In this document: in pieces, positions 19,932 through 64,000 of the stretch
How positions within the stretch are numbered: the stretch's first letter is position 1
Layout of the letters: every line of letters starts with the position of its first letter
Source: Cenarchaeum sp.
GTDB taxonomy: Archaea; Thermoproteota; Nitrososphaeria; Nitrososphaerales; Nitrosopumilaceae
DNA: 64,000 nucleotides
Assembly (NCBI GenBank): GCA_963693095.2
Contig: OY843768.1
Location: 1,408,001-1,472,000, forward strand
Reading direction: 5' to 3'
Program-made: the position numbers and the translations under genes
The notes under the pieces: model-generated
Told to the model about the DNA's origin: nothing
The model's database searches: none
What the model saw: the letters and a program-made list of their open reading frames with translations, nothing else

Positions 19932-22139
19932 CTATTCTATCGTGTATGTCGCCTGATCTGCGCTGGCAGAGTCAGCGGCGCGTATCGTGTACACGCCCGG
20001 ATACTGGTCACGTGGAATGATCCACTCGCCGCTAAACGCGCCCTCGGCAGTGGAGCGCGCAACCTGCGCGAATATCGTCTCGCCGTTGTTATGCGTCACC
20101 GTTATGTCCACGGGCTGGCTCCCGGCCGCGCCCTCGCCGCGTATGGTGATTGCCTTGCCCGTCGCCACCGGAGTCTCGCTGACCTGTATCTTGATTCCCG
20201 AGGTGACCTCGACGACAACGTCAAATGACGTCATCGCCGACTGTGTTCCGCTGCGCGCCATGAGCGTCCACGTGCCCTGCTCGGGGCTAGAGCGCACAAA
20301 GAATGACGCGGTGAACTTTTTGCCTTCTGTCGTGAACGTCTCGATGGTCTTTGTCTCATCGCCAGACGGGCTGATCATGACAACATCCACGAGCGACTGG
20401 GCACGCTCGCTCACGCCCAAAACCGTGACCAGCTCGCCTGGCGTGTAGAGCGTCTTTGTCGTGGAGATTGTCATCGTTCCCGCATTGCTCTGGAGTCCCA
20501 CGGTGAACGTGCGGTCAGCCGAGTTGTTCCCATAGTAGGCGATCGCAGCATATATCCCGCGCGTAAATTCAGAGAGATCGAGCATCTTTACGTAATTTCC
20601 CTCGGCATCAAGGGAGATCTTTGTGCGCTGCTCCTCCTGCTTTTTGGCCGGATGTACCACGACGAGCGTCGCGTCTGACTCGCTGCGCCCCAGCACCGAT
20701 ATCGTCGCCGTCTCGCCGATCGCATAGTTGAGCTTGTCCATCTTTACGACAAACGGGATCTCGGGCCTCGCGCCTAGGCCGACATACGAGATTGACTCCT
20801 CTGTGCCCTGCGCGAGGAACATGACGTATGTCCCCTTGGGGTATGGCGTCTCGGTCAAAATCTCAAAGGCCACGCTTCCTGACTCGCCCACTGCGATAAT
20901 GTCCTCATAGACTGCAGTTCCCTGCGGGTTCTCGAGGATCACCTCGAGGTCAAGGTTCGGCTGTGCCGTGCCTCCAAACAGGAGCGTGTCGCCGGGGTTG
21001 TACATGAACTTGCGCGGCTGTATGCTTATTGGCAGGCCAGACTCGAGATCCCAGCTCCGGCTGACCGTCGAGCTTCCGTCGTATATGACCGCAGTGTAAC
21101 GGCCGGGACTCCAGCTTGACTGCGTGTTGATGCTGCGCGACCACGTGCCTTCAGGGCCGACCTTTAGCGTGTTGACCGATATCGCATAGTCGAGCGGGTG
21201 CTTTAGCGTCACGAGGAGCGAGGCGCCGGGGTTGGCCGAGCCGGACAGGCCCACCTCCTTGCCACCTAGGATCGTCGGCGCGACGTCGCCGGCGGTGAGC
21301 GGCTGCTCGATGTCATCGCCGATGACCTCGACTGTCCCTACTGTGCGCACGCGAGGCTCGTCGATCCGCACCGGCCTCTGCAGCGTGTTGCCCATGTCAT
21401 CAGACAGCGCAAAGTCAACCCTGGCCGCAGGTGCAGCAGACGGCACCGTCGTCGTGTACACAAACCTGCCCGACTCGCCAGTCTCTATCGAGCCGAGGTC
21501 AGCCGAGCCGAGCGAGAGCGAGAGCGTGCTGTTGGCCCCAAAGCCATCACCCACGACGCGTATCGTTGCGCCCTGGTGCGGCCCGCTCGGAACCACCCTA
21601 AACTGCGACGTGCCGTCGATTATGCCGGCCGGCGGGGCATCGGGCGCATCGGGCTCCTCGCCTTCCCCGCCGTCCTCGCCGCCCGGCGGTGGGGGCGGGG
21701 GTGGCGGCGGCGTCTCGCCTGGCACTACCTTGCCCTGGGCGAGCGTGTTGCCGGCGGCGTCCAGGGCGCGCCAGTTTATCCCGTCGGCTGCAGCAGACGT
21801 CTCGACGCCAAACTGTGCAGACTCGCCGGCCATCGGCGGCACTGATGCGCTAAACGAGATGAGCGCCTCGGCCTGGCGCGAGCCCGTCCAGCCGGCGCCT
21901 GTCTTGAAGGACTCAAAGGAGTTTCCGGCGGCAAGCCACATGTCAACGGAGGCGACAGGCACGCTGCCCGAGTTTACCAACGTGATGATTGCCGTGTTGC
22001 CAAGGGAGTGCCCCGTCACCGAGACGTCGGCGTCCTGCGCGAGTGCTGACCCACCGGCCACCGCAATGACCGCGATGAGCACGCCGAGTGCTGCCCCATG
22101 CCGCATGCGCGCCGTCCGGCGCGCCTCTAAATTAACCAT
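19932..22139 (-). CDS. secreted multi-domain Ig-like/surface protein
   Basis: Signal peptide, poly-Pro/acidic linker, repeated beta-sandwich units (DKLNYAIGET, KTLYTPGE, PGVYTI). Confidence 0.8.
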   Translation of the reverse strand: MVNLEARRTARMRHGAALGVLIAVIAVAGGSALAQDADVSVTGHSLGNTAIITLVNSGSVPVASVDMWLAAGNSFESFKTGAGWTGSRQAEALISFSASVPPMAGESAQFGVETSAAADGINWRALDAAGNTLAQGKVVPGETPPPPPPPPPGGEDGGEGEEPDAPDAPPAGIIDGTSQFRVVPSGPHQGATIRVVGDGFGANSTLSLSLGSADLGSIETGESGRFVYTTTVPSAAPAARVDFALSDDMGNTLQRPVRIDEPRVRTVGTVEVIGDDIEQPLTAGDVAPTILGGKEVGLSGSANPGASLLVTLKHPLDYAISVNTLKVGPEGTWSRSINTQSSWSPGRYTAVIYDGSSTVSRSWDLESGLPISIQPRKFMYNPGDTLLFGGTAQPNLDLEVILENPQGTAVYEDIIAVGESGSVAFEILTETPYPKGTYVMFLAQGTEESISYVGLGARPEIPFVVKMDKLNYAIGETATISVLGRSESDATLVVVHPAKKQEEQRTKISLDAEGNYVKMLDLSEFTRGIYAAIAYYGNNSADRTFTVGLQSNAGTMTISTTKTLYTPGELVTVLGVSERAQSLVDVVMISPSGDETKTIETFTTEGKKFTASFFVRSSPEQGTWTLMARSGTQSAMTSFDVVVEVTSGIKIQVSETPVATGKAITIRGEGAAGSQPVDITVTHNNGETIFAQVARSTAEGAFSGEWIIPRDQYPGVYTIRAADSASADQATYTIE

Positions 22140-22157: not shown

Positions 22158-24251
22158 TCACACGCCGATCCTGTCGAGCTCGCCGCGTGCGGCAATGTTC
22201 TCGTACTGGCGTATCCTCTCGGCGATAAGTCTGTAGAGGGACCGAAAGCTGTCGCGTGTCCTGTCTGACAAAAAGTCGGCCTCATCGAGCGCAATCTTTT
22301 CACAGATATAGCGCGTGATCTCCTCGTTCTCAAATGAGCCCCAGTTGTCCTCCCTGTGATCCTCCCAGATCGAGTGGAGGCTCTCAACTACGCCATTTTT
22401 GCTACGCGCAGAAATGTCCTCGGGCGTCAGGTTGCCATATCCCTCTGAGCGCAGCTTTATCTCGTATGTCTGGTTTACCGCGTGGAGATAGTCTTCAGTT
22501 TTCATATAGTCCTCTATTGAGCGTATCGTGCCGCCCTCACGCTCAAAGAATATCATCTGGACCTGTGAGAACTTGTTGGCCACGAGCTGCGAGGAGATCT
22601 GCTTTGACTCGTCGCTGTTGTCAAGGAGAACAAACGTCCTGTACCCGTGGTTCTTGTAAAAGACGGCTAGCGGCATGACAGAGTTCTTGTTGAACGCGGC
22701 AACTATGTTGAGGGGGTTCATCGATATGTTCGGATCCTTGAGAAACTTGTCAAACGCATTGAGGTACATGCAGTCAGACATCGTCTCAACGATAATGACA
22801 GGCCTCGAGTTGGTCCCTATCTCCCTGTCGACTATCGAGTCGACAAGCCCCCGCGAGAGGCCATAGAGGATGGGCGTGAGCGTCTTGTCATCGGCGTTCC
22901 AGTAGTCATAGAATATGCGGCTCAGGTGCTTGCGCTTGTCGAGCTCGACGACTAGGAGGTTGCCCGGCGTGTAGTCAAATATCATGAACGGCGAGTGCGT
23001 CGCGTAGAGAACCTGGTTTGAGCCCGCAAGCGACTTGAGGAGGTCAGATATCCCGCGCTGCTGCGTGGGGTGCAAGTTGCGCGCCGGCTCGTCTAGGAGC
23101 AGTATGGCCTCCTTTAGCTCGGCGCGCTGCGTCTCGGCGGCAAAGTTGACGATGAACGAGAACGTCCACTTGAATCCCTCGGCGCGCCTGTTAAGCAGTC
23201 CCGTGTTGGTGACTGTCCCGTCACGGTGTATGTCAGAGATCACGACGCTGATGATGTTGCCCGGCTGGTAGCGCAGGTCCACGCGGATCGGGTCGCCACG
23301 CCATGCGGGGTTTAGCCTTTCGGTCAGGCGGTTGCTCGCAGTTGTCAGGAACTTTATGACCTTGGAGGGACTGTCGCGCATGCCATCAAGTTCCTCTATC
23401 TCGAGCTCAGAAAGGTAAAAGAGGTTGCGCACGGTCTCGGCCTTGTCAAACTCCTCGACAAACTCTATTCCCGAGCGCACCTGCGGATCCTTGATCTTTG
23501 TGTACTCGTTGAGGTCAATGTTGCCGTATATCTTTTTGTAGTCAGAAAAGTAGACAAAGCGTGGATGGAGCTCACTGGCGATAAAGTTCTTTAGCGCCTC
23601 AAGATCAGACGTGCCGCTCAGCAGGCTTGAGAACTGGTTCTCCGGACTCGAGTAGAGCTTGTCCCACTCGGTAACGACGCGCGACTCGTCACTTGAGAGC
23701 ATGTGGAAGCGGTTGCTAAACTCGGCCATGAGTGTGTCAAACTCGGTCTGGGTTCGCGGTGGTGCGCGCGAGAACGCCGACGTGTCAAGCTGTATGCGAA
23801 TGTGGTTTGGTATAGTGTCAAGAAACGCCATTATCTTGCCGATAAAGTTCTCCCAGGAGTTGAGTGCCTTGTTCTCCGTGTCGCTTATCTCAATGTCCCC
23901 AAAGTCGTACTGGACCTCGTCTTTCTTGTTGGTCCGGTACACGCGGACACGCTCTATCTCGCGGATGGCAGGAAACATCTCCCTGATCATTATGGTCTCC
24001 TTGGCGCTCAGCTCGAACTCGCCCTCGGCGAGCGTGACTTCGGACTTTAGGTCCTCGGACATCTCGTCGCAGAGGTCAAGCTCGGAGACCTTTTCGTCCC
24101 TGTTGAGGAGCGTGAGGGCCTGCAGGATCGTCGTCTTGCCGCTCTCGTTGCGGCCCACAAAGGCGGCCAGATCGCCGACATTGATCTCCCCAGAGTCGTG
24201 TATGCAGCGATACGCCCTGACTCGGAACTTGCGGAGCCTCATTTGGGACAC
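22158..24251 (-). CDS. OLD-family-like ABC ATPase with TOPRIM-like C-terminus
   Basis: Walker A GRNESGKT, LLLDEPARNLHP, YATHSPFM, IIVETMSD, LLDNSDE. Confidence 0.85.
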   Translation of the reverse strand: MSQMRLRKFRVRAYRCIHDSGEINVGDLAAFVGRNESGKTTILQALTLLNRDEKVSELDLCDEMSEDLKSEVTLAEGEFELSAKETIMIREMFPAIREIERVRVYRTNKKDEVQYDFGDIEISDTENKALNSWENFIGKIMAFLDTIPNHIRIQLDTSAFSRAPPRTQTEFDTLMAEFSNRFHMLSSDESRVVTEWDKLYSSPENQFSSLLSGTSDLEALKNFIASELHPRFVYFSDYKKIYGNIDLNEYTKIKDPQVRSGIEFVEEFDKAETVRNLFYLSELEIEELDGMRDSPSKVIKFLTTASNRLTERLNPAWRGDPIRVDLRYQPGNIISVVISDIHRDGTVTNTGLLNRRAEGFKWTFSFIVNFAAETQRAELKEAILLLDEPARNLHPTQQRGISDLLKSLAGSNQVLYATHSPFMIFDYTPGNLLVVELDKRKHLSRIFYDYWNADDKTLTPILYGLSRGLVDSIVDREIGTNSRPVIIVETMSDCMYLNAFDKFLKDPNISMNPLNIVAAFNKNSVMPLAVFYKNHGYRTFVLLDNSDESKQISSQLVANKFSQVQMIFFEREGGTIRSIEDYMKTEDYLHAVNQTYEIKLRSEGYGNLTPEDISARSKNGVVESLHSIWEDHREDNWGSFENEEITRYICEKIALDEADFLSDRTRDSFRSLYRLIAERIRQYENIAARGELDRIGV

Positions 24252-30249: not shown

Positions 30250-30451
30250 GCGTGGCGCGCCTCGTCGGCTCGGTTAAAAATGCTGTTTGGGAGACGCAAG
30301 CCCAGGCAGGGCGGTGAACTGCCCCGCACATGTGCAGAGATGATGATGAAAACATCATGTTTTAATATGATGTGTGGTCTAATCACTAGAAAGCCAATTT
30401 TCAAGTGTCTAAAAATAGAGTATTAATATAACATAATTGATATGTGTGGCC

Positions 30452-31639
30452 ATGCCAAGAACCACGTGGGACACGAGCGGGTTCACAAAGCCCAACGGTC
30501 GGTTTGTGAGCACACAGGCCGGAATCAAGGCATTCGTCCCCAATCCGCTCCCGGCGAAATGGACGGCGCACGGACAGCTCCTCAACATGTACGTAAGGGC
30601 CGAGAAGGCCATGAGCTCCCTAAACACGGTTGCAAACATGATTGGCGTGACGGACCTTTTGACAGCGCTCTATATACGAAACGAGGCCGTTCAGAGCTCC
30701 ATAATAGAGGGCACGCTGGCAAGCCTGGAGGACCTGTTGCAGTATGAGGCGGCCAAACACATCGATGAAGAGGAGGCAGATCGTCTAAGCATGGCAGAAG
30801 TCTCCAATTGCGTAAAGGCCATGGAAGAGTCAATGGAGGAGGTTACAAAAACTGGTGAGATCGACATTGACCTGGTAAAAACAGCACATCGCACACTATG
30901 GAGCAGAGTTCGCGGACAGGAGATGAATATTGGCACATTAAGGAGGGGGCAAAATGCCATACAAAATGGGAGAGGAGACATTGTGTTTGTGCCGCCTCCG
31001 CCTGATCATGCAGAATCCCTCATGGAAGAGCTCATTAGGTTTATGTCAGTTAAACAGCCTGAAATTCCAACCCTTGTTCAATGCGCCATGGCACACTATC
31101 AGTTCGAGACAATTCATCCGTTTGGGGACGGAAATGGACGTGTGGGCCGTATGCTCATACCGCTCATACTTGCCAAAAATGGTGAACTAGGCAAACCAGT
31201 GTTACAGCTTGGAGAATATCTTGCGGCAAATAGGTCAGAGTACTATATGCGCCTGGAGATGATAAGCCAGAAATCAGATTGGGACGGGTGGTGTATGCTG
31301 TTCATGCGGGCATTTGCTGAACAGGCCGAAGCGGCCACAAGGAACATTATAGCCATGGCCGAGATTCAAGACAGATATGCCAAAATGGTCTCAGGAACCG
31401 GCCGTTCCATAGCCGCGCGCACGCTGGAGCTGCTGTTCTCAAACCCCTACATTACCACGCGGCGTGTGCAGGAGGACCTCAGGGTGTCACACACCGGTGC
31501 CTCGCGCGGCATAGCACGGCTAGAAGAGATGGGCATCCTCACAAAAATCCCGAGCGCGCGACGCAGGCGCATCTGGGTCGCCACGGAGATCATCGACACT
31601 ATGCGCAGTGCCGTGCCCACAGGCACGACACTCGTGTAA
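30452..31639 (+). CDS. Fic-family AMP-transferase with N-terminal autoinhibitory helix and C-terminal wHTH
   Basis: HPFGDGNGRVGR Fic motif, SSIIEG inhibitory motif; lower GC than flanks. Confidence 0.92.
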   Translation: MPRTTWDTSGFTKPNGRFVSTQAGIKAFVPNPLPAKWTAHGQLLNMYVRAEKAMSSLNTVANMIGVTDLLTALYIRNEAVQSSIIEGTLASLEDLLQYEAAKHIDEEEADRLSMAEVSNCVKAMEESMEEVTKTGEIDIDLVKTAHRTLWSRVRGQEMNIGTLRRGQNAIQNGRGDIVFVPPPPDHAESLMEELIRFMSVKQPEIPTLVQCAMAHYQFETIHPFGDGNGRVGRMLIPLILAKNGELGKPVLQLGEYLAANRSEYYMRLEMISQKSDWDGWCMLFMRAFAEQAEAATRNIIAMAEIQDRYAKMVSGTGRSIAARTLELLFSNPYITTRRVQEDLRVSHTGASRGIARLEEMGILTKIPSARRRRIWVATEIIDTMRSAVPTGTTLV

Positions 31640-51818: not shown

Positions 51819-51977
51819 ATGGAGCCTGACGACACCACCATGTTGGATGACGACGAGAGGATGAAGAAGGCGAGGGAAAGGGTCGCCAAGATGGAGCTGG
51901 GCGGTCCAAAGTTTGCGTCACCGGAAGAATACATGCGCGGACAGGCACCTGACTATAAACCCAAAAAGCAGGAGTGA
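51819..51977 (+). CDS. 52-aa charged hypothetical peptide at the island edge
   Basis: Hand translation MEPDDTTMLDDDERMKKARERVAKMELGGPKFASPEEYMRGQAPDYKPKKQE. Confidence 0.4.
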   Translation: MEPDDTTMLDDDERMKKARERVAKMELGGPKFASPEEYMRGQAPDYKPKKQE

Positions 51978-52037
51978 CGATGACTCCAGAGTCAGACTCG
52001 AATGACGGAGTTGCTAATTGGCACGATAATAAATGAT

Positions 52038-53486
52038 TTATTCTGTGATGGTAAATGAACGTGCCAATATTCTTGAATATGATATATAGTTAAGCAGATG
52101 AGGAAGATCATCAAAGAGATTTTTCCATAAGGGATTAGAAGGGTCAGCTTTTTGAAGGTTGTTAAAATGGTCAGATCTACGCAATATACCTTTGGTTGCT
52201 GGATCAAGCGAGTGTGTCGAACGAAGATCATTAATTTTTACCAGGTTAATCAGCTTGACAAGATCTGAAAAGAGATCAAAACGAAGATTATGTAAAGACA
52301 TATAGCTTAGTAATGCTGGTGGAATAATGTATACAAAGTCATCATGTTTATGCAATAGTGGGTTAAGTCCAGTAATCGATACGTCAAGACCATCTTGGTC
52401 AAATAGTTTGCTCCAAGACTCATCAAAAAATTCTTTATTTGATGATAAAATTGTAAATAGTTGCTGTTGTAAATCAGTAAGAGTGATTGATTCAATAAAT
52501 TTGAATGCATTCAGATTATTTAAATGAGTGTGAACAGCTATAGAGGTAAGAACTTTGAGATCAGAGAGCGAGGGTGTGCGCATAATTGAACCAAGTTTGC
52601 CAGCAATTACTAATAACGAATTTTTATTTTTAAATGCATGACGTCGAATAATAATACAATTGACGATATCGCCGGGTTCAAGCTCAGAAGCTAGTGGTTC
52701 AACAACAAATAAACGAGTGTTTAGAGAAGTGAATTTAGGAGGTTTAGAGAGAATTTTACCTTGAATTGCGCGATATTGAAACCGATCCTGTAAAAAATCA
52801 AATTGATGAACAGATGAATCAATTTTAACGATCTTTACTAGTGTTTTAAATACATCACATGTCTCAAGAAGTTCTGTGTAGCCATGATAAATAAAATTAT
52901 GGAAAGAATCATAGTCATTATTAATATCAGCAGCAGGCAATCGCCAATAAGAGTAAGTAAAACACTGATCAACTATTTTAGAATGAGTAATGTTTGGCCG
53001 TTCAATATTAGTAGCCCAATTTCTGAGAAGAAAATTCAAACTAGAAAATTGTGGCGGGATATTACGCTCAAATTTGAATCGTTCATACACATCAGAAACA
53101 AGAACACGCTGAGCAGAATTAGGAAAATATTCATGTATGCGTTTAGTTCCATGTAGATGCATCAATGTAAAATGGTTTAGATCTTGAACATATGTGGCAA
53201 GAAAAGCAGCTGGTGCGCGTGTATCAAAATAATGTATTTTACGACTAAGCAGGTTAAAAGATTGTGGAGAGAATAATGATAACGGTAATCTCAAGTTAAG
53301 CCGTATGCACGCATTATCTTTAACACTTTCAATACGCATATGTTCAATATCAGGAACTGAGCGAGAAGTAAGTTCTGCAATTCTTTGAGAAGAAACCAGA
53401 ATTAACTGTGTTAAAAATTTAGGATATGAAGGCTCAATAAGCTTTTCTAAAATTTGGATTTCTATATTTTCGCGAGATGGCATCAA
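52038..53486 (-). CDS. unknown 482-aa protein, last gene of the DISARM-like operon
   Basis: Long ORF in AT-rich DNA, ATGA overlap with the drmC stop; no recognised motif. Confidence 0.8.
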   Translation of the reverse strand: MMPSRENIEIQILEKLIEPSYPKFLTQLILVSSQRIAELTSRSVPDIEHMRIESVKDNACIRLNLRLPLSLFSPQSFNLLSRKIHYFDTRAPAAFLATYVQDLNHFTLMHLHGTKRIHEYFPNSAQRVLVSDVYERFKFERNIPPQFSSLNFLLRNWATNIERPNITHSKIVDQCFTYSYWRLPAADINNDYDSFHNFIYHGYTELLETCDVFKTLVKIVKIDSSVHQFDFLQDRFQYRAIQGKILSKPPKFTSLNTRLFVVEPLASELEPGDIVNCIIIRRHAFKNKNSLLVIAGKLGSIMRTPSLSDLKVLTSIAVHTHLNNLNAFKFIESITLTDLQQQLFTILSSNKEFFDESWSKLFDQDGLDVSITGLNPLLHKHDDFVYIIPPALLSYMSLHNLRFDLFSDLVKLINLVKINDLRSTHSLDPATKGILRRSDHFNNLQKADPSNPLWKNLFDDLPHLLNYISYSRILARSFTITE

Positions 53487-53998
53487 AGATCATCTCCTTG
53501 TTTTATAGAACGCGCAAGCACATCCAACATATTAGCAATTTTGGAAACAGAATTTCCGTTAATTTTAAGCATAATTTCATAATTATAATTCATAGCATTT
53601 TTAGATATGTTAGGAGATCCTATCAACGCAAATTTTCTATCGATTACTATAATTTTAGCGTGAAGAGAACCATATTTGTGCTTTATTTGAAAGTTAAATA
53701 GATCAAAATTTGAAAATTTTTGAAAAGCAATCAATTTTTGTCTTGAAAAGTCTCCAATGGTTGATCCTTCCAAATCATTAACAATAAATTGAACATAACA
53801 ACCAGCATTAATTTGATCTTGAATAATATCAAAAAATGTTTTCATTTCAAAATTATCTCGGCCTAAAGAAAATGCCGAGATTTGTATGCTAGTCCGGGCT
53901 TGTTTTAGTGAATCAAAAACTGTGTCTACTATATTACTTGCTTCGTATCCTACCCATAATGCGCCAGATGCAGAAATTGAAGCAATCTCACGGGTCAA
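53483..53998 (-). CDS. drmC: DISARM phospholipase D-family nuclease DrmC
   Basis: Single HKD motif LHAKIIVIDRKFALIGSPN...NYE; coupled to drmB. Confidence 0.85.
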   Translation of the reverse strand: MTREIASISASGALWVGYEASNIVDTVFDSLKQARTSIQISAFSLGRDNFEMKTFFDIIQDQINAGCYVQFIVNDLEGSTIGDFSRQKLIAFQKFSNFDLFNFQIKHKYGSLHAKIIVIDRKFALIGSPNISKNAMNYNYEIMLKINGNSVSKIANMLDVLARSIKQGDDL

Positions 53999-55944
53999 CG
54001 CTTAAGTGACTCCAAAAGAAGGTTACGATCTAAAAACTTGTTGTAAGAATCACATGATGTTTCAGAAACAAATAAGCAAGCATGACAAGCAGCACCATTA
54101 AACCGATTGTGGGTTTTCCGTCTATCAACACAAACAGGATCATTGGAACATATACGGATGTTATGATAAACATGGGATAGAATCTCTGAAAATGACGGAG
54201 CTAGGCTAATTAGACCCCCCAAGGTTCCGTCTCCCCCGGGCTGAGCTGTGTAAAGCAGAAGGCCAGATGTGTGTCGGCCAGACTCATCCTCATGACAATA
54301 AACACGCTCAGCAATACTTGCAGATGAAAATCCCGAACTGATTGCAAGCTGGTTAATGATTTTATGAGACAGCGCATGCCACCACACAAATCTAGGATTA
54401 GTTTTTCTTTTAGCTTCTAAACTTTTTTTAGACCAAGATTCATAGGTTGTGTTCCAAGCATCAAATGAGTCGTTTGAAGTATTTAGAACAGTGAGGGGGT
54501 CAAAGTTTATGTTTTTGTCAGAAGGGTCACATACTTGTATAAATAATCCTTCACCACGCAGTTGATGGCCAACAAACCACCTAGTATCATCTTCGTCATA
54601 GTAATTATAAATCAATTTACCCTGACGGTGGATGATTGGTATATTAGCATCATCCGAATCATCAAGTTCGTGTGTAACAACCTCACGCGAATATCCCAAT
54701 TGTACGCGGGTTAAATGTAATTGACGTATTGGAGAAATTCGGAAGTGGAGATTGAAATCCTCATGAAAGAAATCTATCGAATCAGTAGGTTCAATATGTA
54801 AACCAGTGAACGTACCATGTTTTTGGGGAGGAAAACCGTTTACGGTTGCATTAAGTAAATTGTTAAATTCATCATTAATCACGTTTTCAAAGTCAAATTC
54901 TGATTTATCAGATTGTTTTTTTGTCATATCTTCTGAAATTTTTGTAAGCGCATGTTTTATTTCATCCAATGTGGAAGTTTCAATAGCAGGTATAGGAAGA
55001 TTAGCATTGTATTTTTGATTAATTCGTTTACAATGATCAAGAAATTGCGTGTGTGTAAAATTAGGAGAGTTGTTGTGAAGAAATAGATCTAATGCCAATG
55101 GGTTTTCAGAGAGTATTCCAAGCTTACCAGGTACAGGAGGAATAGAAACGGCCAACATCAAGTCCACAACACGGATATTGCTAGAGTTTTTTAGTATAAG
55201 TTTAGAAGGTTCGCCACATGTTGAGATATTGTCTCTGGGAGGGTATTCTTGCATCACGCCAGAACATTGCAAAGTACCATTATCAGATTTTGACCGAAGT
55301 TCAAAGTACGAAACAGATTTATCACAATTTGTGCGCTGAAATGAACCATTTTCATAATAACCGTAACATCGAACAGTGAAATTATTATCACTATCAGATT
55401 CGTCCCATTCAAATACATCACCTAGGCATTCAAAGTGTCCACGATGAACCTCATATTTCCAATCAATGTCATCCAAATGACCGTTGTTACACGCCCTAAC
55501 AAATCGTACCGATGAACCTCTGTTTTTGTGACGTTTTGAAAGATTAGCATTGCTAGAACAGTTTGGACAGCGGATTTCAGCATGACCAGATATGTTTTGT
55601 AACTTAGACAATACAGGAGTTCCCGGATGGGCATTGCAAACAGACCAACGAGGAAATATGAAAGATCGAAACAAATATGTATTGTCGTCAGGGGTCAGAT
55701 CAGCGTTAGATGGCATTTGAAATATTTTAATAGCTTTTTTAGCAGGAAATTTTCTTTTTAGTATATTTTCCATATTAGAATCTTTAATGCAGAATGAATT
55801 TAATTGAAAATCAGGAAAACGACGAAAGTCGTCTATTATATTCAACAAAGACGGAATCACCACATAGCCACTTGCAATCGGAATCATCGATCCACTACCA
55901 TAGGTAGTAACATATTGTGATGGTCGTAATTGAACACTAGGCAT
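53995..55944 (-). CDS. drmB: DISARM DUF1998 protein DrmB
   Basis: LRPSQYVTTYGSG, RFVRACNNGHLDD, HALSH, DGTLGGL, CSNDPVC...GAACHACLFVSETSC...NKFLDR. Confidence 0.92.
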   Translation of the reverse strand: MPSVQLRPSQYVTTYGSGSMIPIASGYVVIPSLLNIIDDFRRFPDFQLNSFCIKDSNMENILKRKFPAKKAIKIFQMPSNADLTPDDNTYLFRSFIFPRWSVCNAHPGTPVLSKLQNISGHAEIRCPNCSSNANLSKRHKNRGSSVRFVRACNNGHLDDIDWKYEVHRGHFECLGDVFEWDESDSDNNFTVRCYGYYENGSFQRTNCDKSVSYFELRSKSDNGTLQCSGVMQEYPPRDNISTCGEPSKLILKNSSNIRVVDLMLAVSIPPVPGKLGILSENPLALDLFLHNNSPNFTHTQFLDHCKRINQKYNANLPIPAIETSTLDEIKHALTKISEDMTKKQSDKSEFDFENVINDEFNNLLNATVNGFPPQKHGTFTGLHIEPTDSIDFFHEDFNLHFRISPIRQLHLTRVQLGYSREVVTHELDDSDDANIPIIHRQGKLIYNYYDEDDTRWFVGHQLRGEGLFIQVCDPSDKNINFDPLTVLNTSNDSFDAWNTTYESWSKKSLEAKRKTNPRFVWWHALSHKIINQLAISSGFSSASIAERVYCHEDESGRHTSGLLLYTAQPGGDGTLGGLISLAPSFSEILSHVYHNIRICSNDPVCVDRRKTHNRFNGAACHACLFVSETSCDSYNKFLDRNLLLESLKR

Positions 55945-58900
55945 CTGAAACAAACCCCCATTTTTCACCCATTGTGAATGTCGGCTCAACATCACGAAGT
56001 GAGTAATGCACATTTTTGTAAGCAGAAATTTTACCAGCCATTTGATGATGTTTTGTGCCGAGCACAACATGATTTTTTAGTTTAGCTCTAGTAGATTGAT
56101 TATAAATAAATTTATCGCCATAGTCTCTAGAAATCCGATTCGCACAACTGTTCCATATACAAATAGCGTCATTAAACAGCAGAGTAAACTCGTCAGAACT
56201 AACTGGCAAATCTGAATCAGGCGACAGATTGGAAAGAAGTGTTTTTGCAGAGTCAAATATTTGAGTTAGAGAAGTGCAAAGTGCAGTTATTTCATCATTT
56301 TTGTGATGTCCAATCATATAGTTAGGATTGTTTTGCCAATCAGCAGAAACAGGTTGTTGGGCAATGTGGCCAGCATTTCGTAGTATAGCCACAATTATTG
56401 GGCCAAGACATGTCTTTAACGCTTTTTCAGAAAATGGAGAGGCACTAATAGGTTCTACAAAACGGTTTATAGCTCTATGATACCCAACAAAATTTTCATA
56501 ATGACTAAGATCACGAACTCGTGTAGCACGCAGCCAAGTAATCACAAGTCCGGGATGTTTGCGTCCAATACGACCGGTTGATTGAATGTAGCTAGATGTG
56601 GATTTTGGCTGCCCCACAACAGTCATAAGTCCAAGTCTATCAATATCAATTCCTGTACCAAAAATAGAGGTAGTGAAAAGAGCATCAATTTTTCCAGGTT
56701 TTTCTAGATCTTCCATAGCTTTAGGGAGATCTAGAGATTTGACAGAGCTAGAAAGCTCAACAGCTTTTGTTTGATCTAAGTATCTATGAGAATAGTTTAA
56801 GCTGACCATTATAGATTCAGGAATTTTGCTTGTTTGTTCTACAGAACTAAAAACTATTTTATTATTTTTGATTTGAAATTTATTTGTGATGTGTGACTTT
56901 CGATCACTAGCACCACATTGAAAAGAGGTAGTTGATGAATAGTTGTGAATAGCAACCCACACGAGCGTTCCACGAGATGATGGAATTGGGGTTTCAAGCA
57001 ACAATTCATTTGCATTTTTATGACAACGCTTGACAAATTCATCTGTTGTGTTCGAAAGTAGTTTAGACGGAGTATCATCGATCGGATTATTGTCGTACAA
57101 GGCAACAGACATTTCGCCCGATTCGTTAGAGCAATAGATGGTAATGGAGACAAGGTCAGAGTCATGGGAAAGTAGAACAGGAATAAACCTCGTTCCCGGA
57201 TCGAATTGACTGTTGTCTAATCTGTGTGAGATTGAAAAGTCATTCTTTGAGCTCAATTTTTTAACATCACGTATAATATCAGAATTGTACAAATTGCGCG
57301 CAATGGCCAATTCACGAATTGCATTGAAGTATCCCACAAGTGTCCAATATGCATCAAGATTAGCAGGCATTGCCTGGGATTTTGGGGATTTATGAAGTCG
57401 GTAAATTGAACTAAGTAATGATGCATATATTCTCACCAACCCAAGTAGCATGCTTCTTGGGGCAAGTAGTCCAATATAAAGTCGTCCGGGAGTATCACAC
57501 GAACATGAAGGATCTTCGTCAATTTTGCTAAAATAATTATCGCCGTCACGTATACCCGGAGGCGGGAACACACGTGCAGTACGTCTGTAAACCACTGCAA
57601 CCTGACGTGAAGATTCTTTGATTGTAGCCGTAGATGCAATGTATTTAATTTTAGGAGTGCCCGGAGAAGAAAGTATATCAATAGCGATTTCGTAAAGGCC
57701 AACCATGCTTCCCAATGGGCCTTCAATAAGATGAAGCTCATCCTGTATAATTAATGACGGTGGATAAAAATTGGGCACAGGATCAGATAAACTATCGTCT
57801 TTGTACGTGCCAGCACGGTGAAATCCATCAAACATGTGATAAGTGTCAACATTGCCGAATATGGATGCTGCTTCGGGTTTAAATGCCAATTGGGCAAATT
57901 TGTCAGTAGTGGCAATTATAACTGTCGGGCAACGGCCATACACTTGTGGATCGATTGTAAAGGCCGAAATAGGAGTGCTAATCGACTTATTAGGATCATT
58001 TTGTGAAACAAACGGCTTGGCTATGAGCGTTTGACCACGAGGCATAGTTTTTTCAAACCAAGGGATCTCCCACGTTAAGCAATCGGGGTTTGGGCAGTGT
58101 ATAGAAAAATCAAATCGCTTATTAGAATTATTCTCATACAAAAAGAAATAGCCCGGTCGTGATGCACGAGTGCATTGGAGCGGAACACTGTATTTTGTAA
58201 GCTTAAGTGCCCGCATTATATCATCACGCCACCATTTATCTATATTGTCAGAAGAGAGATGGTTAGTACGAAAATGTACACGTAGAGCACAATAGGTACC
58301 GTGTTCATTAGTGTGAATACGAGAAAGAGATTTTGCTGGTGAGCCATCTTTTTTGCATATAATGTGCCCATTACCACAAAATTTTGAATTGTCTATTGAA
58401 TCGAATTCTTCAGACACCATATTGGTTTCTACAATCCAGGTAATAGTAAAAATTTCACGGTTTGTAATTTCTTTGTCAGAAATTGCCAATAATGATCCAC
58501 AACAAGGACACTTTGTAATTTGGGCAGGTTCGCCGCTATTCCCTCGACTAGTTCCAGGAGGAAGCGGAGATAGGGCGCCTTCAGCATTAAGGAAAGATCC
58601 AACTTGTTCAAACCGGTTAGGAGTTATATCACCGATCCACAATCCTAACGAAAAACGGTTTTGACCCCAGAGATTTTTTCGTGAATCTCTTTCGATCAAA
58701 TCTGGATCAGTAAATTCAACATTTCGAGGCAGCCAATGCTTGACTCTCAACATATCAGAGGCGAGGATTAATCCCAACGTCCTACTAAATTGCTGAATTG
58801 TCAAAAGTCGGAGAGTGTATCGAGATATGATAGAAACACCGCCATCTGTTTGAAAGTCTTTGTACGTAACAAGTCGGCGATAGGCAAAAGTAAACGCCAT

Positions 58901-60361
58901 AAGTCCAAGATACGCCTCTGTCTTTCCACCACCGGTTGGGAACCATAGAATGTCACAAAAATCTTTATCTTGTTTATTGTCTGGAATGAGACCCGGCAAT
59001 GTTTGTAAGATAAATGCTATTTGAAATGTATGCCAAGAAAAGTGTGCGTCATTATCGTTGCTATCCCATTGGTGTTTCATATGCATAGCCTCGTTCATAA
59101 AGCAAAATGCCAATCGTGCTTTTTCGTTACACAATAATAAATCAATCCCTTTTTGGATACGATCTGCACACTGATAACATTGTTCAATATTTTCATCAAG
59201 TAAATCATTTTTGGTAGAATAAGTTTCTTGTTGATCAGATATCCATTGTTTGTATTCTGTGACAATTGGTGTGAATGTAGAAGAGATAGAATTAACATCC
59301 CACAAGTCAGCAAGGCGATCTGCATTAAATCTGTCAGAATTACCTCGAATTTCAGGTTGGCGAACAACATACATTGGTAAATATTCGGTACGTATGTCAG
59401 AATTTTGAAATTTTTGAAGAACATCATCTGGCATTATTGATGATTGTGCATCAGGCCACATCATGGAGCAAAAATCTTGATTCGCGGAATCAGAAGCAGG
59501 ATCTATATCTTTCCACATAACCCCACACAGATGTCCACGACCTTTATTGGCCTTGTTTTGATATAAATAATCATTGTTTGTTTTATCGGCAAATGGTGTT
59601 CCAAGATCTTCAACGGATGAGTCAGAGCCGCATATAACGCGAATTTGTGGTTGAAAAATCGACAATACATTGTTTTGTCTTTTGTTGGGTTTGGTTCCAG
59701 AATATGGCGATTCGTTAACAAGAAATATAGATACATGCCATTTATTATTTTCAACGTAACGTGTATAGACATAAAGCTTTGCATCATTGCTTCCAATATT
59801 ATGAATAAATGAATTTGAAGGCAACAGAGGGGTAGCGATTTTAGAAACATCGATCAGGTCAGAAACCATCAGACTAGGGTGACGTTTGTATGTTCCCGGA
59901 GCATGGACTAGCTCGTATTTGCCCCACGTGCAACATATCTGAATTAGTGGCGGGGCACCTGCAACGACAAATGATAGACCCATTGAGTATGCACCCTGCA
60001 TTAGGTTAAGGTCAGAATCAACACTAATTTTATAGTCTGTTTCATCTGATTCAAAGTCGGAATCTCCATGATGTAAATTGTCGGGAAAATTTGCCTTTTC
60101 GTATGGATCGGGAGGGATGTTAAAATCAGGTTTGTCAGAAGAACGAAGACGGGGGTTAAGAATTCCCATGGTGTATTGAACTGATGGATTTTCGATTACC
60201 TCATCAGGTCCACATCTAGGTCCAAGCATATCTTCAAAAAGTGATTTGACCATATAGGTACGAGCTAAACCTGAGAATAGACTCTCTGTAGATGTAAAAT
60301 TAGAATTATTAGTTTCAGAATTTGAATGGTTGTCTGTATGCTCAGTGGTAGGTTGTGTCAA
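55937..60361 (-). CDS. drmA: DISARM SF2 helicase DrmA (1474 aa, enlarged)
   Basis: WFPTGGGKTEAY, RYTLRLLTIQQF, IIQDELHLIEGPLGS, STAT, GIDIDRLG, YIQSTGRIGR, RDLSHYE. Confidence 0.92.
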   Translation of the reverse strand: MTQPTTEHTDNHSNSETNNSNFTSTESLFSGLARTYMVKSLFEDMLGPRCGPDEVIENPSVQYTMGILNPRLRSSDKPDFNIPPDPYEKANFPDNLHHGDSDFESDETDYKISVDSDLNLMQGAYSMGLSFVVAGAPPLIQICCTWGKYELVHAPGTYKRHPSLMVSDLIDVSKIATPLLPSNSFIHNIGSNDAKLYVYTRYVENNKWHVSIFLVNESPYSGTKPNKRQNNVLSIFQPQIRVICGSDSSVEDLGTPFADKTNNDYLYQNKANKGRGHLCGVMWKDIDPASDSANQDFCSMMWPDAQSSIMPDDVLQKFQNSDIRTEYLPMYVVRQPEIRGNSDRFNADRLADLWDVNSISSTFTPIVTEYKQWISDQQETYSTKNDLLDENIEQCYQCADRIQKGIDLLLCNEKARLAFCFMNEAMHMKHQWDSNDNDAHFSWHTFQIAFILQTLPGLIPDNKQDKDFCDILWFPTGGGKTEAYLGLMAFTFAYRRLVTYKDFQTDGGVSIISRYTLRLLTIQQFSRTLGLILASDMLRVKHWLPRNVEFTDPDLIERDSRKNLWGQNRFSLGLWIGDITPNRFEQVGSFLNAEGALSPLPPGTSRGNSGEPAQITKCPCCGSLLAISDKEITNREIFTITWIVETNMVSEEFDSIDNSKFCGNGHIICKKDGSPAKSLSRIHTNEHGTYCALRVHFRTNHLSSDNIDKWWRDDIMRALKLTKYSVPLQCTRASRPGYFFLYENNSNKRFDFSIHCPNPDCLTWEIPWFEKTMPRGQTLIAKPFVSQNDPNKSISTPISAFTIDPQVYGRCPTVIIATTDKFAQLAFKPEAASIFGNVDTYHMFDGFHRAGTYKDDSLSDPVPNFYPPSLIIQDELHLIEGPLGSMVGLYEIAIDILSSPGTPKIKYIASTATIKESSRQVAVVYRRTARVFPPPGIRDGDNYFSKIDEDPSCSCDTPGRLYIGLLAPRSMLLGLVRIYASLLSSIYRLHKSPKSQAMPANLDAYWTLVGYFNAIRELAIARNLYNSDIIRDVKKLSSKNDFSISHRLDNSQFDPGTRFIPVLLSHDSDLVSITIYCSNESGEMSVALYDNNPIDDTPSKLLSNTTDEFVKRCHKNANELLLETPIPSSRGTLVWVAIHNYSSTTSFQCGASDRKSHITNKFQIKNNKIVFSSVEQTSKIPESIMVSLNYSHRYLDQTKAVELSSSVKSLDLPKAMEDLEKPGKIDALFTTSIFGTGIDIDRLGLMTVVGQPKSTSSYIQSTGRIGRKHPGLVITWLRATRVRDLSHYENFVGYHRAINRFVEPISASPFSEKALKTCLGPIIVAILRNAGHIAQQPVSADWQNNPNYMIGHHKNDEITALCTSLTQIFDSAKTLLSNLSPDSDLPVSSDEFTLLFNDAICIWNSCANRISRDYGDKFIYNQSTRAKLKNHVVLGTKHHQMAGKISAYKNVHYSLRDVEPTFTMGEKWGFVSDA

Positions 60362-60413
60362 TGTAGAACGTTACCTCTGGACAAAATGAACTTAATCAAC
60401 ATGGACAATTTGT

Positions 60414-61436
60414 TTACCTCGTAGACTGTGCGCGTAGGGTTTTTCTGCGCGGGTGGCGAACAATCATTCGATGGGCAGTTATATGAGGCACCATATGTTT
60501 GGCTATTTCAGAGACTATTGGAGGAACCACCGCATTGCCTAATTGTCGGTATGCGTGAGAATCGGAGACGTGTAGCTTGAAGTTTTTGGGAAAACCCATG
60601 AGTAGAGCGCATTCTTTTGGTGTAAGTCGGCGCGGGTTTTTCCGTGATCCCTGGTAGACGAGGATTTCAGCCCCATCCTTGTAGTAGCGGGCACTCAGAG
60701 TTCTTGATGCACCGTCAAGGTCAGCCAAGCCATATCCAAACCCATTTCCTTTTTTTCGGTTTCTTTCTGCATGACGTTTCAGCGCAGACCACACGCCGTC
60801 AGTTAGCGTGTATTTTGCATCCGGTGAGCTGTCCAAGATTTTTTTGAGTTTGGGGCCTGATCCGGAAAATTGCGGAAATGCAAAGTTTGTGGGCTCGGCA
60901 AACCCAACCAAGAAAAGGCGCTCCCTGTGCTGGGGAACTGCGGATCGGGCATCAATTACCTCATGGCGTATATCATAACCGAGTTTTTTCAGCTCTTTTT
61001 CGATGATCATGAGCGTTCGACCCCCATCATGTGAACGGAGATTTTTGACATTCTCCAAGAGAAATGCCCGTGGACGTTTGGCTCGGAGTATACGGACGAT
61101 CTCAAAGAACAGGTCTCCCTGTGACGAGTCAGCAAACCCGTCAGGCCTGTTCATACTTCGCTTTTTGGACACGCCGGCCAGAGAGAACGGCTGGCAGGGA
61201 AAGCCCGCCACGAGCACATCATGATCGGGTATTTCAGAGGGCCGGATTTGGCGAATGTCCCCAGATGGAACATCCCCAAAATTAGACTCATAGGTGTTGC
61301 GGGAGTGCTCGTTCAGCTCGGAGGAAAAGACACACCGCCCACCGGCCTTTTCGAATGCCATACGCATTCCCCCAATTCCGGCAAATAGATCGATGAACGT
61401 GAATTTAGATCGCTGTCTGGTAGGCAATTCTGTCAA
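60414..61436 (-). CDS. drmMII: Dcm/EcoRII-like DNA (cytosine-5)-methyltransferase, DISARM DrmMII
   Basis: DLFAGIGG, GFPCQPFS, ENVKNL, PQHRER; TRD GNGFGYG...RTLSARYYKDGAEIL resembles CCWGG-specific Dcm. Confidence 0.9.
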   Translation of the reverse strand: MTELPTRQRSKFTFIDLFAGIGGMRMAFEKAGGRCVFSSELNEHSRNTYESNFGDVPSGDIRQIRPSEIPDHDVLVAGFPCQPFSLAGVSKKRSMNRPDGFADSSQGDLFFEIVRILRAKRPRAFLLENVKNLRSHDGGRTLMIIEKELKKLGYDIRHEVIDARSAVPQHRERLFLVGFAEPTNFAFPQFSGSGPKLKKILDSSPDAKYTLTDGVWSALKRHAERNRKKGNGFGYGLADLDGASRTLSARYYKDGAEILVYQGSRKNPRRLTPKECALLMGFPKNFKLHVSDSHAYRQLGNAVVPPIVSEIAKHMVPHITAHRMIVRHPRRKTLRAQSTR

Positions 61437-61456: not shown

Positions 61457-61466
61457 GTTATAAGGA
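61457..61466 (-). promoter_or_regulatory. putative TATA box of the DISARM operon
   Basis: CTTATAA on the minus strand ~25 bp upstream of the drmMII TTG start. Confidence 0.5.
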
Positions 61467-61480
61467 TAATGGACAACTGC

Positions 61481-61647
61481 ACAGGCGTGCGAGAACAGGC
61501 GTGCGAGAACAGGCGTGCGAGAACAGGCGTGCGAGAACAGGCGTGCGAGAACAGGCGTGCGAGAACAGGCGTGCGAGAACAGGCGTGCGAGAACAGGCGT
61601 GCGAGAACAGGCGTGCGAGAACAGGCGTGCGAGAACAGGCGTGCGAG
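61481..61647. repeat. perfect tandem repeat, 14-bp unit ACAGGCGTGCGAGA, 11 full copies plus 13/14
   Basis: Read directly; no spacers. Confidence 0.97.
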
Positions 61648-61692: not shown

Positions 61693-64000
61693 CTAGCTTT
61701 CCGCATCACGCGTGGCCGGCGTGTAGACGACGGTCGGCGTACTAGCCGTGCCTCCAAAGTCACCGTGCGTGAGTGCAAACCCCATGTCACCCGAGAGGCG
61801 CAGTGTGCGCACAAACTCGCCTGACGCGTCATCTGCAACCCCCACGGCCGCCTCGCCGTTGACAATCCACTCAGCTGCCACAATGTCCCCGATCACAGGC
61901 TCGTCGAGGGTCACCGTTGTGACAGTCGCCGATGTCGTGTGCGCCGATGCGATCGTCGGAGGCCTAGTGTCGATCTCTATTGCTCCAGAGGCACCCTGGA
62001 CCGCAGTCGCCGTCACACCCGTCGAGCCGTCAATCGCCGTGACCTCAAAGGTGAGCAGGCCAGAAACTGCGTCGCCTGCCACCGTGTGCACGTGCGTCCA
62101 GGTCTGCCGATAGTCCCCCGGCGCGTCGACCATGGTGAGCGCAGGACCGCCGAGGATGGAGACTGTTGGGTCTGCGCTGATGCCGGCCGGCTCGTTGAGC
62201 GTTGCAGTGATGACAATGTCATGGCCGATGCCGGCCGTGCGCGCGCCCAGGCCGCTCCGCTGCACCTTTGGCGTCTGCACGCTGTCGTCATCGTCCTCCA
62301 CCACAATGGCCGAGACGGCAACGGTGAGCGCAGTCGTATCGGTGCCGGCCGGAATTGTTCCAGAGACTGCAGTCGACATGCGCGGCAGGTATGCCTGGCA
62401 CACCGGATCTATTGTGTCGCTGTGCAGGCATGTGCGCTCTGTCTCAAAGTTTGGCGTGGCGACCGGAAGGTATCGCACTGTCGGAGCAACGTCTGCCGGC
62501 TGGGCCGAGGTGTCCGGAAGTGTGAGGGACATGCTTATGCCGTCGGCAGAGAGTTTATGGGACGCAAACTCTAGGTGGCGCGCGACGTCACCGGCCGCAC
62601 CAGGAAACGTCGCAGGCGTCAGGTCTATTATCCAGCTCGATGGCGTGGACTCGGCAAATCCTAGCAGCCGTTCTGTGAACGTGACTGTCATCGTTGTCGG
62701 TGACGTGAGCGCCGCCGTGAATGCCGGAACGAGATTCGTGCCAAACCGGAACGGAATATTCACAAGCTGCGGGTTGTCAGCCGGTGTCAGGTCACCGGCA
62801 ATATGCCTCTTTAGCGTCGTGGGGATGGTGACTGTGTGCGACGGAGCCGATGGTCTTGTCGCATCGAGCTGAATCGAGACGTACGATCCGTCGGCCTCGG
62901 CGGCGCTGACGGTTCCGTCAAACGCAGCTCCTATGGCGGCGTCGGACGGCAGCGCACCTCGTTCAGGCATCACGCGCAGCGTCCCCCACGGACCGTCCGT
63001 GCGCGAGGCCGGATGCGGCGGATCGGCAAGCGTCCGGCGATCAGGGGCGTTGCCCGGAAAGTAGACTAGCACGCGCGAGGCGTCTGGTGAGGCATCAGAC
63101 GGGATGATGCGCAGTGACACGGACTCTTGCGAGCCGGCAAACGCAGAGCCGTCTGAGCCCATTATCGTCGGCGGCAGGCGGACAGAGTATGCGACGTCGC
63201 CCCTGGCCTCGTACGTGCTGCCACGCTCATCGACGAGCGAGACGACTAGCGTTCGCGGGCCGTCAGGCGCGACCCTGTTGGATATGGGAAGCGGCGGGAT
63301 CGGCAGGCATTGGGGCTGGAGGCTGCCCTGTGCAGAGCACGCTGGATCCTCGGGCATGTCCGGCGGCGCCTCGCCCCGCACGACGTCAAGCGAAGAGGGC
63401 ACCGAGGAGTGGTCGATATCGGCGCCAAAGAGGACGCGAATCTCGCCATATGCGGCAAACTCGGCACTCACCACGCGAGGCGGGCCGGCGACTGCCACAG
63501 TCACCGGCGAGGCCAGCGCGTTTGCGGGCTGCGCGGTGTCCACTATGGAGAGCCGTCGTGTCGTGTCAGCCGGCGCGTACATTATCGACACCCCCTCGCC
63601 GAGCGTCGCGTGATCGGTGGCAGTCGCACCTAGCGTGACTGTGCGTCGCGCAAGGTCCACCATAACTGATGACGGCACGATTCCCTCGGGGCTCGACCCG
63701 GAGACGAGGCGCCAGTCATCTGCAATGGGAGCCGACTTTGTCGGCGCGAGCATGACGGCTTCGCTGAACGTGACCACATAGGATGGCGCAGACTCGTCAA
63801 ACGGGTCAGCACGGTGCGCCGTAAACTCTGGGGGCGCGCCGTCTGTGGCCAGCGTGTCAAAGACACGAAGCGGCAGGTGGCCGTCTCGTGACAGGCTGTC
63901 AGAGACATCAGAGTATATCACGCGCGGCTGCTGGCCGGTCGAGTCTAGCGCGCTGTGCGTTATGGTCATCGTCGTGACCGGCGAGCCCTGTGGTATCGTG
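61693..64000 (-). CDS. large repetitive surface/adhesin-like protein (C-terminal part; frame is open to the window edge)
   Basis: Thr/Ala/Pro/Val-rich beta repeats (VVTFSEAV, TMTVTFTE, TVTLDEPV...VVYTP), SwmB/Ig-like. Confidence 0.8.
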   Translation of the reverse strand, partial: TIPQGSPVTTMTITHSALDSTGQQPRVIYSDVSDSLSRDGHLPLRVFDTLATDGAPPEFTAHRADPFDESAPSYVVTFSEAVMLAPTKSAPIADDWRLVSGSSPEGIVPSSVMVDLARRTVTLGATATDHATLGEGVSIMYAPADTTRRLSIVDTAQPANALASPVTVAVAGPPRVVSAEFAAYGEIRVLFGADIDHSSVPSSLDVVRGEAPPDMPEDPACSAQGSLQPQCLPIPPLPISNRVAPDGPRTLVVSLVDERGSTYEARGDVAYSVRLPPTIMGSDGSAFAGSQESVSLRIIPSDASPDASRVLVYFPGNAPDRRTLADPPHPASRTDGPWGTLRVMPERGALPSDAAIGAAFDGTVSAAEADGSYVSIQLDATRPSAPSHTVTIPTTLKRHIAGDLTPADNPQLVNIPFRFGTNLVPAFTAALTSPTTMTVTFTERLLGFAESTPSSWIIDLTPATFPGAAGDVARHLEFASHKLSADGISMSLTLPDTSAQPADVAPTVRYLPVATPNFETERTCLHSDTIDPVCQAYLPRMSTAVSGTIPAGTDTTALTVAVSAIVVEDDDDSVQTPKVQRSGLGARTAGIGHDIVITATLNEPAGISADPTVSILGGPALTMVDAPGDYRQTWTHVHTVAGDAVSGLLTFEVTAIDGSTGVTATAVQGASGAIEIDTRPPTIASAHTTSATVTTVTLDEPVIGDIVAAEWIVNGEAAVGVADDASGEFVRTLRLSGDMGFALTHGDFGGTASTPTVVYTPATRDAES

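Follow-up and report, generated by a model that had tools for sequence, protein, structure and literature searches.

The stretch of DNA analyzed here, 64,000 nt of a Cenarchaeum sp. genome (contig OY843768.1, positions 1,408,001 to 1,472,000) that we refer to as the window, carries a five-gene operon that appears to be an intact DISARM (for a defense island system that is associated with restriction–modification) cassette of the class 2 type, closed by a gene, orfX, whose family has no name. The initial annotation had placed five co-oriented open reading frames (ORFs) at 52038–61436, and all of them are present there, on the minus strand. In order of transcription they are drmMII (60414–61436, TTG start), a Dcm-like C5 cytosine DNA methyltransferase of 340 aa; drmA (55937–60361, TTG start), a superfamily 2 (SF2) helicase of the YprA family with 1474 aa; drmB (53995–55944), a DUF1998/MZB zinc-binding partner of DrmA with 649 aa; drmC (53483–53998, TTG start), a short nuclease of the phospholipase D (PLD) family with a single HKD motif and 171 aa; and orfX (52038–53483), with 481 aa counted from an ATG. 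The drmB start is set at the ATG that agrees with its PADLOC profile; in the longest ORF, which starts at 56070, the profile begins at residue 46. The last four genes are coupled by overlapping stop and start codons, as had been noted before, and the overlaps measure 8 nt between drmA and drmB (ATGCCTAG), 4 nt between drmB and drmC (TTGA), and 1 nt between drmC and orfX (TGATG). A gap of 52 nt separates drmMII from drmA.

Upstream of the operon, inspection of the sequence revealed a TATA-like hexamer (TTATAA, 61458–61463, minus strand) about 25 nt before the drmMII TTG. Read from the letters alone, it is a candidate archaeal promoter that would yield a leaderless or near-leaderless drmMII transcript. 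At the other end, a consensus scan picked out a terminator-like hairpin followed by a T-run (51971–51987, minus strand) about 50 nt past the orfX stop, which likely marks the end of the operon. The hairpin is suggestive by position only, because terminator-like sites are no more numerous in the region than in shuffled sequence (7 found, 7.5 expected). The intergenic DNA 45–211 nt upstream of the drmMII start also contains a perfect tandem array (61481–61647) of 11.9 copies of the 14-bp unit ACAGGCGTGCGAGA. Elsewhere in the window this unit has a single match, with two mismatches; the array has no Rfam match, and it yields a spurious plus-strand ORF of 176 aa. It could be a variable-number repeat that acts on expression.

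The PADLOC search named four of the five proteins, and the motifs that had been claimed for them (C5 methyltransferase, SF2 helicase, DUF1998, HKD) were all found, with the catalytic motifs intact. DrmA matches PDLC02571 (E = 0, 1098.8 bits) and Pfam Helicase_C, aligns with PDB entry 7s9v (E = 3.1e-110), and has a Walker A motif GGGKT at 477–481, DELH at 874–877, TAT, and QSTGRIGR. DrmB follows directly as a separate gene (PDLC02583, E = 6.3e-133; Pfam MZB PF09369, E = 1.2e-8), and its cysteine clusters CPNC, CSNDPVC, and CHAC are invariant. DrmC (PDLC02614, E = 4.8e-27; PLDc_2, E = 1.7e-15, residues 29–152) carries HAKIIVID, that is HxK(x4)D, at 113–120, and the residues H113, K115, D120, G127, S128, and N130 do not vary across 16 relatives. 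The protein is short: annotated plasmid drmC genes measure 744–798 nt (approximately 247–265 codons). A survey of YprA-family helicases describes an N-terminal four-helix bundle for the majority of DrmC proteins (bioRxiv 10.1101/2025.09.15.676423), for which 171 predicted residues leave no room. The helicase, the DUF1998/MZB protein, and the PLD-type nuclease make up the DISARM core, and the methyltransferase inside the operon is of the DrmMII type that marks class 2. Neither class 1 marker (the SNF2 protein DrmD and the N6-adenine methyltransferase DrmMI) is among the five genes, which are the sole content of the AT-rich block.

That block stands out sharply in composition. Over 52000–60000 the GC content of the window falls from 58–66% to 33–41%, against a background of approximately 61%. 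The description of the operon as AT-rich genes in a GC-rich genome holds for drmA (39%), drmB (38%), drmC (31%), and orfX (34%) but not for drmMII, with 50.5% GC and 0.50 at third codon positions (GC3). Host genes have 59–64% GC and a GC3 of 0.71–0.82; for the island genes GC3 is 0.20–0.29. No flanking direct repeats, integrase, or insertion sequence were found at the locus. A genome scan with an 11-sequence orfX alignment, whose results did not include the window's own genome, returned one relative among 69 pattern matches, in a metagenome-assembled genome (MAG) titled Nitrosopumilus sp. This locus (L001) has the methyltransferase, DrmA, DrmB, DrmC, and orfX in the same order and with the same best PADLOC submodels. 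Its block of 34–38% GC lies within flanks of approximately 52% GC and is bracketed by inverted repeats (1039–1821 and 11647–12428) that are 96–97% identical and encode DDE_Tnp_1 ORFs. Because the composition of the window cassette is foreign and the related locus is bracketed by transposase-encoding repeats, these sequence features support the horizontal acquisition that the initial annotation had proposed. The layout of L001 resembles a composite transposon; downstream of it lie a dndB-C-D-A cluster and a DUF3800 gene, and then a third transposase (20029–21327). The L001 methyltransferase gene has no counterpart of the 14-bp array upstream.

The methyltransferase may have a history of its own. 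DrmMII (PDLC02653, E = 3.2e-150; Pfam PF00145, E = 7.8e-85) has motifs I, IV, VI, and VIII intact (FAGIGG at 18–23, PCQ at 80–82, ENV at 128–130, and QHRER). It is 54.5% identical to the L001 enzyme and up to 55.6% identical to methyltransferases of bacterial plasmids, whereas DrmA is 46% identical to its L001 copy and at most 34% to plasmid copies. Since drmMII also differs in GC content and is set off by the 52-nt gap, this suggests a module that was swapped, is exchangeable, or has a separate history. With E. coli K-12 Dcm it shares 46% identity (171 of 368 aligned columns), including the variable region between motifs VIII and IX, and its best PDB sequence matches (3lx6 and 3me5, each titled “cytosine-specific methyltransferase”) rank above M.HhaI. 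This likeness to Dcm and EcoRII-type enzymes, which act on CCWGG, makes CCWGG or another CCNGG-type site the likely target. Unlike Dcm, the 340-aa protein lacks the N-terminal extension, and no vsr gene was seen adjoining it; one plasmid methyltransferase 51.7% identical to drmMII does adjoin Vsr and an endonuclease of the MvaI/BcnI family. CCSGG is under-represented over the host DNA of the window (1–51999 and 61700–64000), with 60 occurrences where 113.7 are expected from a maximal-order Markov estimate (ratio 0.53). Neither CCWGG nor the other motifs counted pointed to a target for the methyltransferase. A second C5 cytosine methyltransferase is encoded at 7908–9017 on the plus strand (369 aa; PF00145, E = 4.1e-65) and is only 29% identical to drmMII.

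The gene that closes the operon matches no family in PADLOC or Pfam at E ≤ 0.01 or in NCBIfam at E ≤ 0.001, nor when the limits are relaxed to E ≤ 10 for PADLOC and E ≤ 1 for Pfam; its description as a last gene of no known family was thus borne out. Relatives are few. A word-indexed search of 5.8 billion clusters gave 8; searched exhaustively, the family comes to 46 representatives at E ≤ 1e-3, orfX itself included (31 at ≤1e-10 and 10 at ≤1e-30). Nearly all are 440–560 aa long, no longer fused form occurs among the 46, and the sources for ten clusters that were looked up hold no name for the family. A protein atlas search had no usable match for orfX or its L001 counterpart. Among 72,556 plasmids, DrmA matched 100 records and DrmB 72, all at less than 60% identity, and orfX had no match by tblastn at E ≤ 0.01; the ten DISARM-type plasmid regions inspected contained neither an orfX relative nor an annotated DrmE. 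Profile comparison with hhalign showed no relation between orfX and DrmB (probability 0.08%).

Some of the relatives appear to keep company with DISARM genes. Sized contigs were available for 17 orfX relatives, and for 8 of these the longest contig is exactly as long as that of a DrmB and/or DrmC relative (2157, 10536, 10727, 11047, 11049, 14357, and 17866 nt, plus L001). For the DrmB relatives on matching contigs, together with the window (8 orfX–DrmB pairs), the identity matrices of the two proteins are strongly correlated (Mantel r = 0.91, reached by 7 of 5000 permutations). Because the gene order is conserved elsewhere, these comparisons support orfX as a genuine conserved component of the cassette and not an accident of position.

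The predicted structure of orfX offers a lead to what it may do. An AlphaFold2 model built on a 33-sequence alignment (predicted local distance difference test [pLDDT] 89.3, predicted TM-score [pTM] 0.92) is rich in beta strands and appears to contain several OB-like folds, with an N-terminal helical hairpin and a C-terminal helical domain. Foldseek against the PDB gave 8 matches at E ≤ 1e-3, all to multi-OB DNA binders or complexes that hold one: single-stranded DNA-binding protein (SSB) of Deinococcus and Thermus, Pyrococcus abyssi RPA, and a chain of a nucleotide excision repair complex. Lower in the list come the HIN domains of p202, AIM2, and IFI16, as well as RPA70, Teb1, TEBP, CST, Cdc13, and RADX. 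In the viral structure library BFVD, the model matches phage SSBs and baculovirus LEF-3, which we take to be an SSB as well. Multi-OB binders (SSB, RPA, HIN-200, LEF-3) are thus the top structural neighbors in two libraries. The invariant columns of the alignment (M1, Y98, N103, W180, P183, K213, T214, and P375) include Y98, W180, and K213, a further point of likeness; because these positions hold aromatic or basic residues, Asn, Thr, or Pro, and never Asp, Glu, or His, the alignment favors a role in binding over an enzymatic one. OrfX differs from these proteins in having no sequence similarity to them, low TM-scores, the extra N-terminal hairpin, and a C-terminal domain of 180 aa, for which short, non-significant winged-helix matches are in keeping with the secondary structure as read. 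We regard the OB-fold assignment of the model as a consistent lead and not as proof.

Taken together, we favor an intact, horizontally acquired cassette of the class 2 type in which orfX stands in the place of DrmE as a multi-OB accessory that binds single-stranded DNA (ssDNA), and we give this reading a probability of roughly 0.6. In such a system the Dcm-like methyltransferase would mark host DNA at CCWGG or a related CCNGG-type site. DrmA, as an ATP-driven helicase, and DrmB, as a zinc-binding DUF1998 module, would form the core complex, and DrmC, with its single HKD motif, would act as a PLD nuclease of the dimer type. In the solved Serratia DrmAB complex, activation comes about when a trigger loop is dislodged by a 5' ssDNA overhang (PMC9142583); carried over to the window, DrmAB would be activated by foreign DNA with single-stranded 5' ends. 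OrfX would be a non-enzymatic accessory whose OB-like folds bind either that trigger substrate or the strand that DrmAB unwinds, and could serve as sensor or adaptor, presumably in contact with the Drm proteins. OrfX also diverges faster than any other component.

Several observations weigh against this reading. The structural matches are remote, with query-normalized Foldseek TM-scores of 0.11–0.24, root mean square deviations of 8–17 Å, and E-values near 1e-4; low scores are expected if only the single barrels, and not their arrangement, are common to both sides. Residues 301–481 modeled alone (pLDDT 89.4) had no PDB match at E ≤ 1e-3. No sequence profile ties orfX to SSB or RPA: a Pfam search of the 33 members gave 5 unrelated single-member matches (E = 0.019–0.052), and the best match of the orfX profile among PDB sequences was TAF6 at E = 0.055. 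As to linkage, 9 of the 17 relatives with sized contigs lack a size match, mostly on short contigs or among distant members; an Alphaproteobacteria MAG is the source of one remote relative, a “hypothetical protein”; and the five-gene order is directly seen in two loci, the other seven being deduced from identical contig sizes. CCWGG shows no depletion over the host DNA of the window (137 sites, against 134.5 by the Markov estimate), a count that is uninformative on the target. The absence of a recognizable drmE, on the other hand, accords with the favored reading and with the initial annotation: orfX and the co-oriented 758-aa ORF upstream have no PADLOC family at E ≤ 10, and none of the 33 orfX-family members matches a DrmE model at E ≤ 0.1, a result that rests on PADLOC models used without a positive control and without a canonical DrmE sequence or fold alongside.

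That last point bears on the possibility that orfX is itself a highly diverged, shorter DrmE now placed last in the operon, at its 3' end, in which case the locus would be ordinary class 2 DISARM with a DrmE that escapes the profiles. Only part of the DISARM mechanism is understood, and no role is known for DrmE, the class 2 accessory; orfX likewise fills the part of a fifth gene without known function. Other ORFs adjacent to drmA also escape PADLOC, namely an 801-aa ORF in L. plantarum pMK02 between a DrmMII-type methyltransferase and drmA, a 480-aa ORF in Nostoc, and ORFs of 326 and 507 aa in Bacillus, so the DrmE models, uncontrolled as they are, may cover little of the real diversity. However, the family-wide failure to match these models is joined by the lack of any NCBIfam match, the orfX profile gave hhalign probabilities of 0.1–0.5% against three of the drmA-adjacent ORFs of no known family (hmmsearch: nothing below E = 3), and orfX sits after drmC, not before drmA. 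We consider a disguised DrmE fairly unlikely.

A second alternative is that orfX is a passenger, a separate defense, anti-defense, or regulatory gene that travels with drmABC and has no part in DISARM. Its faster evolution would fit, since in 26 of 28 comparisons DrmB was the better conserved of the two, and so would the distant members whose genomic context is unseen, including the one from Alphaproteobacteria. Against a passenger speak the 1-nt stop/start overlap with drmC, the same position in L001 at an identity of only 32% (46–55% for the other four proteins), the co-occurrence on the seven metagenomic contigs matched by size, and the distance correlation with DrmB; rarity is also about the same for the short DrmC proteins (16 clusters) and the close relatives of orfX (9), the window's own protein included. 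This explanation, too, is unlikely. Decay or silencing of the cassette in its present host, which would leave it a relic without function, we judge highly improbable, since the foreign codon composition, the TTG starts of drmMII, drmA, and drmC, and the loss of mobility genes at the locus are set against five reading frames that are full length relative to homologues, catalytic motifs that are all intact, and tight gene coupling.

Beyond the favored reading of orfX as an ssDNA-binding accessory lies a bolder one, in which the orfX family defines a third DISARM class. An RPA/SSB-like protein would there replace DrmE, and perhaps also the four-helix bundle of DrmC, read single-stranded viral DNA, and license DrmAB–DrmC; insertion sequences would spread such cassettes among marine archaea of low GC content and certain bacteria, with repeated capture by high-GC relatives. 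We offer this only tentatively, as a doubtful though not far-fetched extension.

The remainder of the window fits an archaeal host, with genes for RadA, an A-type ATPase, eIF2-gamma, Nop, and Trm1, besides urease genes and a sodium/solute symporter. The host had been called an ammonia-oxidizing archaeon; the archaeal housekeeping genes uphold the second half of that statement, and no amo gene family was matched among the window ORFs scanned (a selection, mostly of at least 200 aa), so that the window itself does not show ammonia oxidation, plausible as it is. Two further genes may bear on defense. A 697-aa AAA_15/AAA_21 ATPase at 22158–24251 (minus strand) matches the PADLOC models AriA (E = 1.1e-24) and Old (E = 8.7e-22) and also GajA models, and is possibly an OLD-family defense gene; it adjoins a 735-aa ORF with an MG2 domain (19932–22139). 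A Fic/DOC protein at 30437–31639 (plus strand) matches the SoFic model of PADLOC at E = 5e-98. An Rfam match to the Helicobacter 5' ureB small RNA (sRNA; 13944–14236, plus strand, 71.2 bits) lies antisense inside the gene for the urease alpha subunit and most likely reflects conserved urease coding sequence, not an sRNA.

The suggestion that the locus might be a new DISARM subtype is only partly sustained: the conserved fifth gene speaks for it, while class 2 systems without drmE, archaeal DISARM, and DISARM-like helicases in ammonia oxidizers have already been published. The type II definition of PADLOC requires DrmE, and the locus fails that definition for this reason; in a preprint devoted to class 1 DISARM, however, drmE is said to be present in class 2 only “on occasion.” Class 2 systems with DrmE are reported from Freyarchaeia and from Woesearchaeales proviruses, where they stand beside Dnd. 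The survey of the YprA family speaks of “many uncharacterized DISARM-like classes,” and its Table S1, which covers the helicases and not their neighbors, lists “DISARM-like helicases” in many genomes of Nitrososphaerota, among them those of Nitrosopumilus, Nitrosopelagicus, Nitrosarchaeum, Nitrosotalea, and Nitrosotenuis; its main text has no mention of DrmE or OB-fold, and its four supplements (file 2 in part) have none of DrmE (bioRxiv 10.1101/2025.09.15.676423). No published account of a locus such as this one was found in the literature on DISARM with Thaumarchaeota, ammonia-oxidizing archaea, or sponges. The overall picture of DISARM, with its core, its presence in archaea, and class 2 systems that lack drmE, is therefore unchanged by our analysis. 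What a variant with a readable multi-OB-like accessory fold adds is a concrete hypothesis, namely that DrmAB is served by an accessory acting as ssDNA sensor or adaptor. Censuses of defense systems in archaea, including nitrifiers, would undercount such cassettes, because detectors that require DrmE would miss the class 2 call here.

Among characterized systems, the closest likeness is to the class 2 DISARM of Bacillus paralicheniformis, reportedly described by Ofir and colleagues in 2018 with the order drmE-drmA-drmB-drmC-drmMII. Both combine a C5 methyltransferase with DrmA, DrmB, and DrmC in one co-oriented operon, free of class 1 markers. The window locus differs in that no DrmE is recognized and the 481-aa orfX comes last, in having the methyltransferase first and not last, in its archaeal host, and in a DrmC reduced to a 171-aa PLD-only form; its DrmA is longer as well (1474 aa, against 1282 positions in the best PADLOC profile). 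With the class 1 DrmAB of Serratia sp. SCBI (7s9v/7s9w) it shares the alignable DrmA and the split of DrmA and DrmB into two genes, whereas the Serratia system has DrmD and an adenine methyltransferase and no orfX-like gene. Set against these systems, the locus is a rare class-2-type DISARM variant with a new accessory protein and not a new kind of system. The absence of drmE, the archaeal host, and the DISARM-like helicases of ammonia-oxidizer genomes are already known, and the novelty is narrow: a fifth gene, SSB-like, conserved, and quick to evolve, that is coupled to a DrmC of short form.

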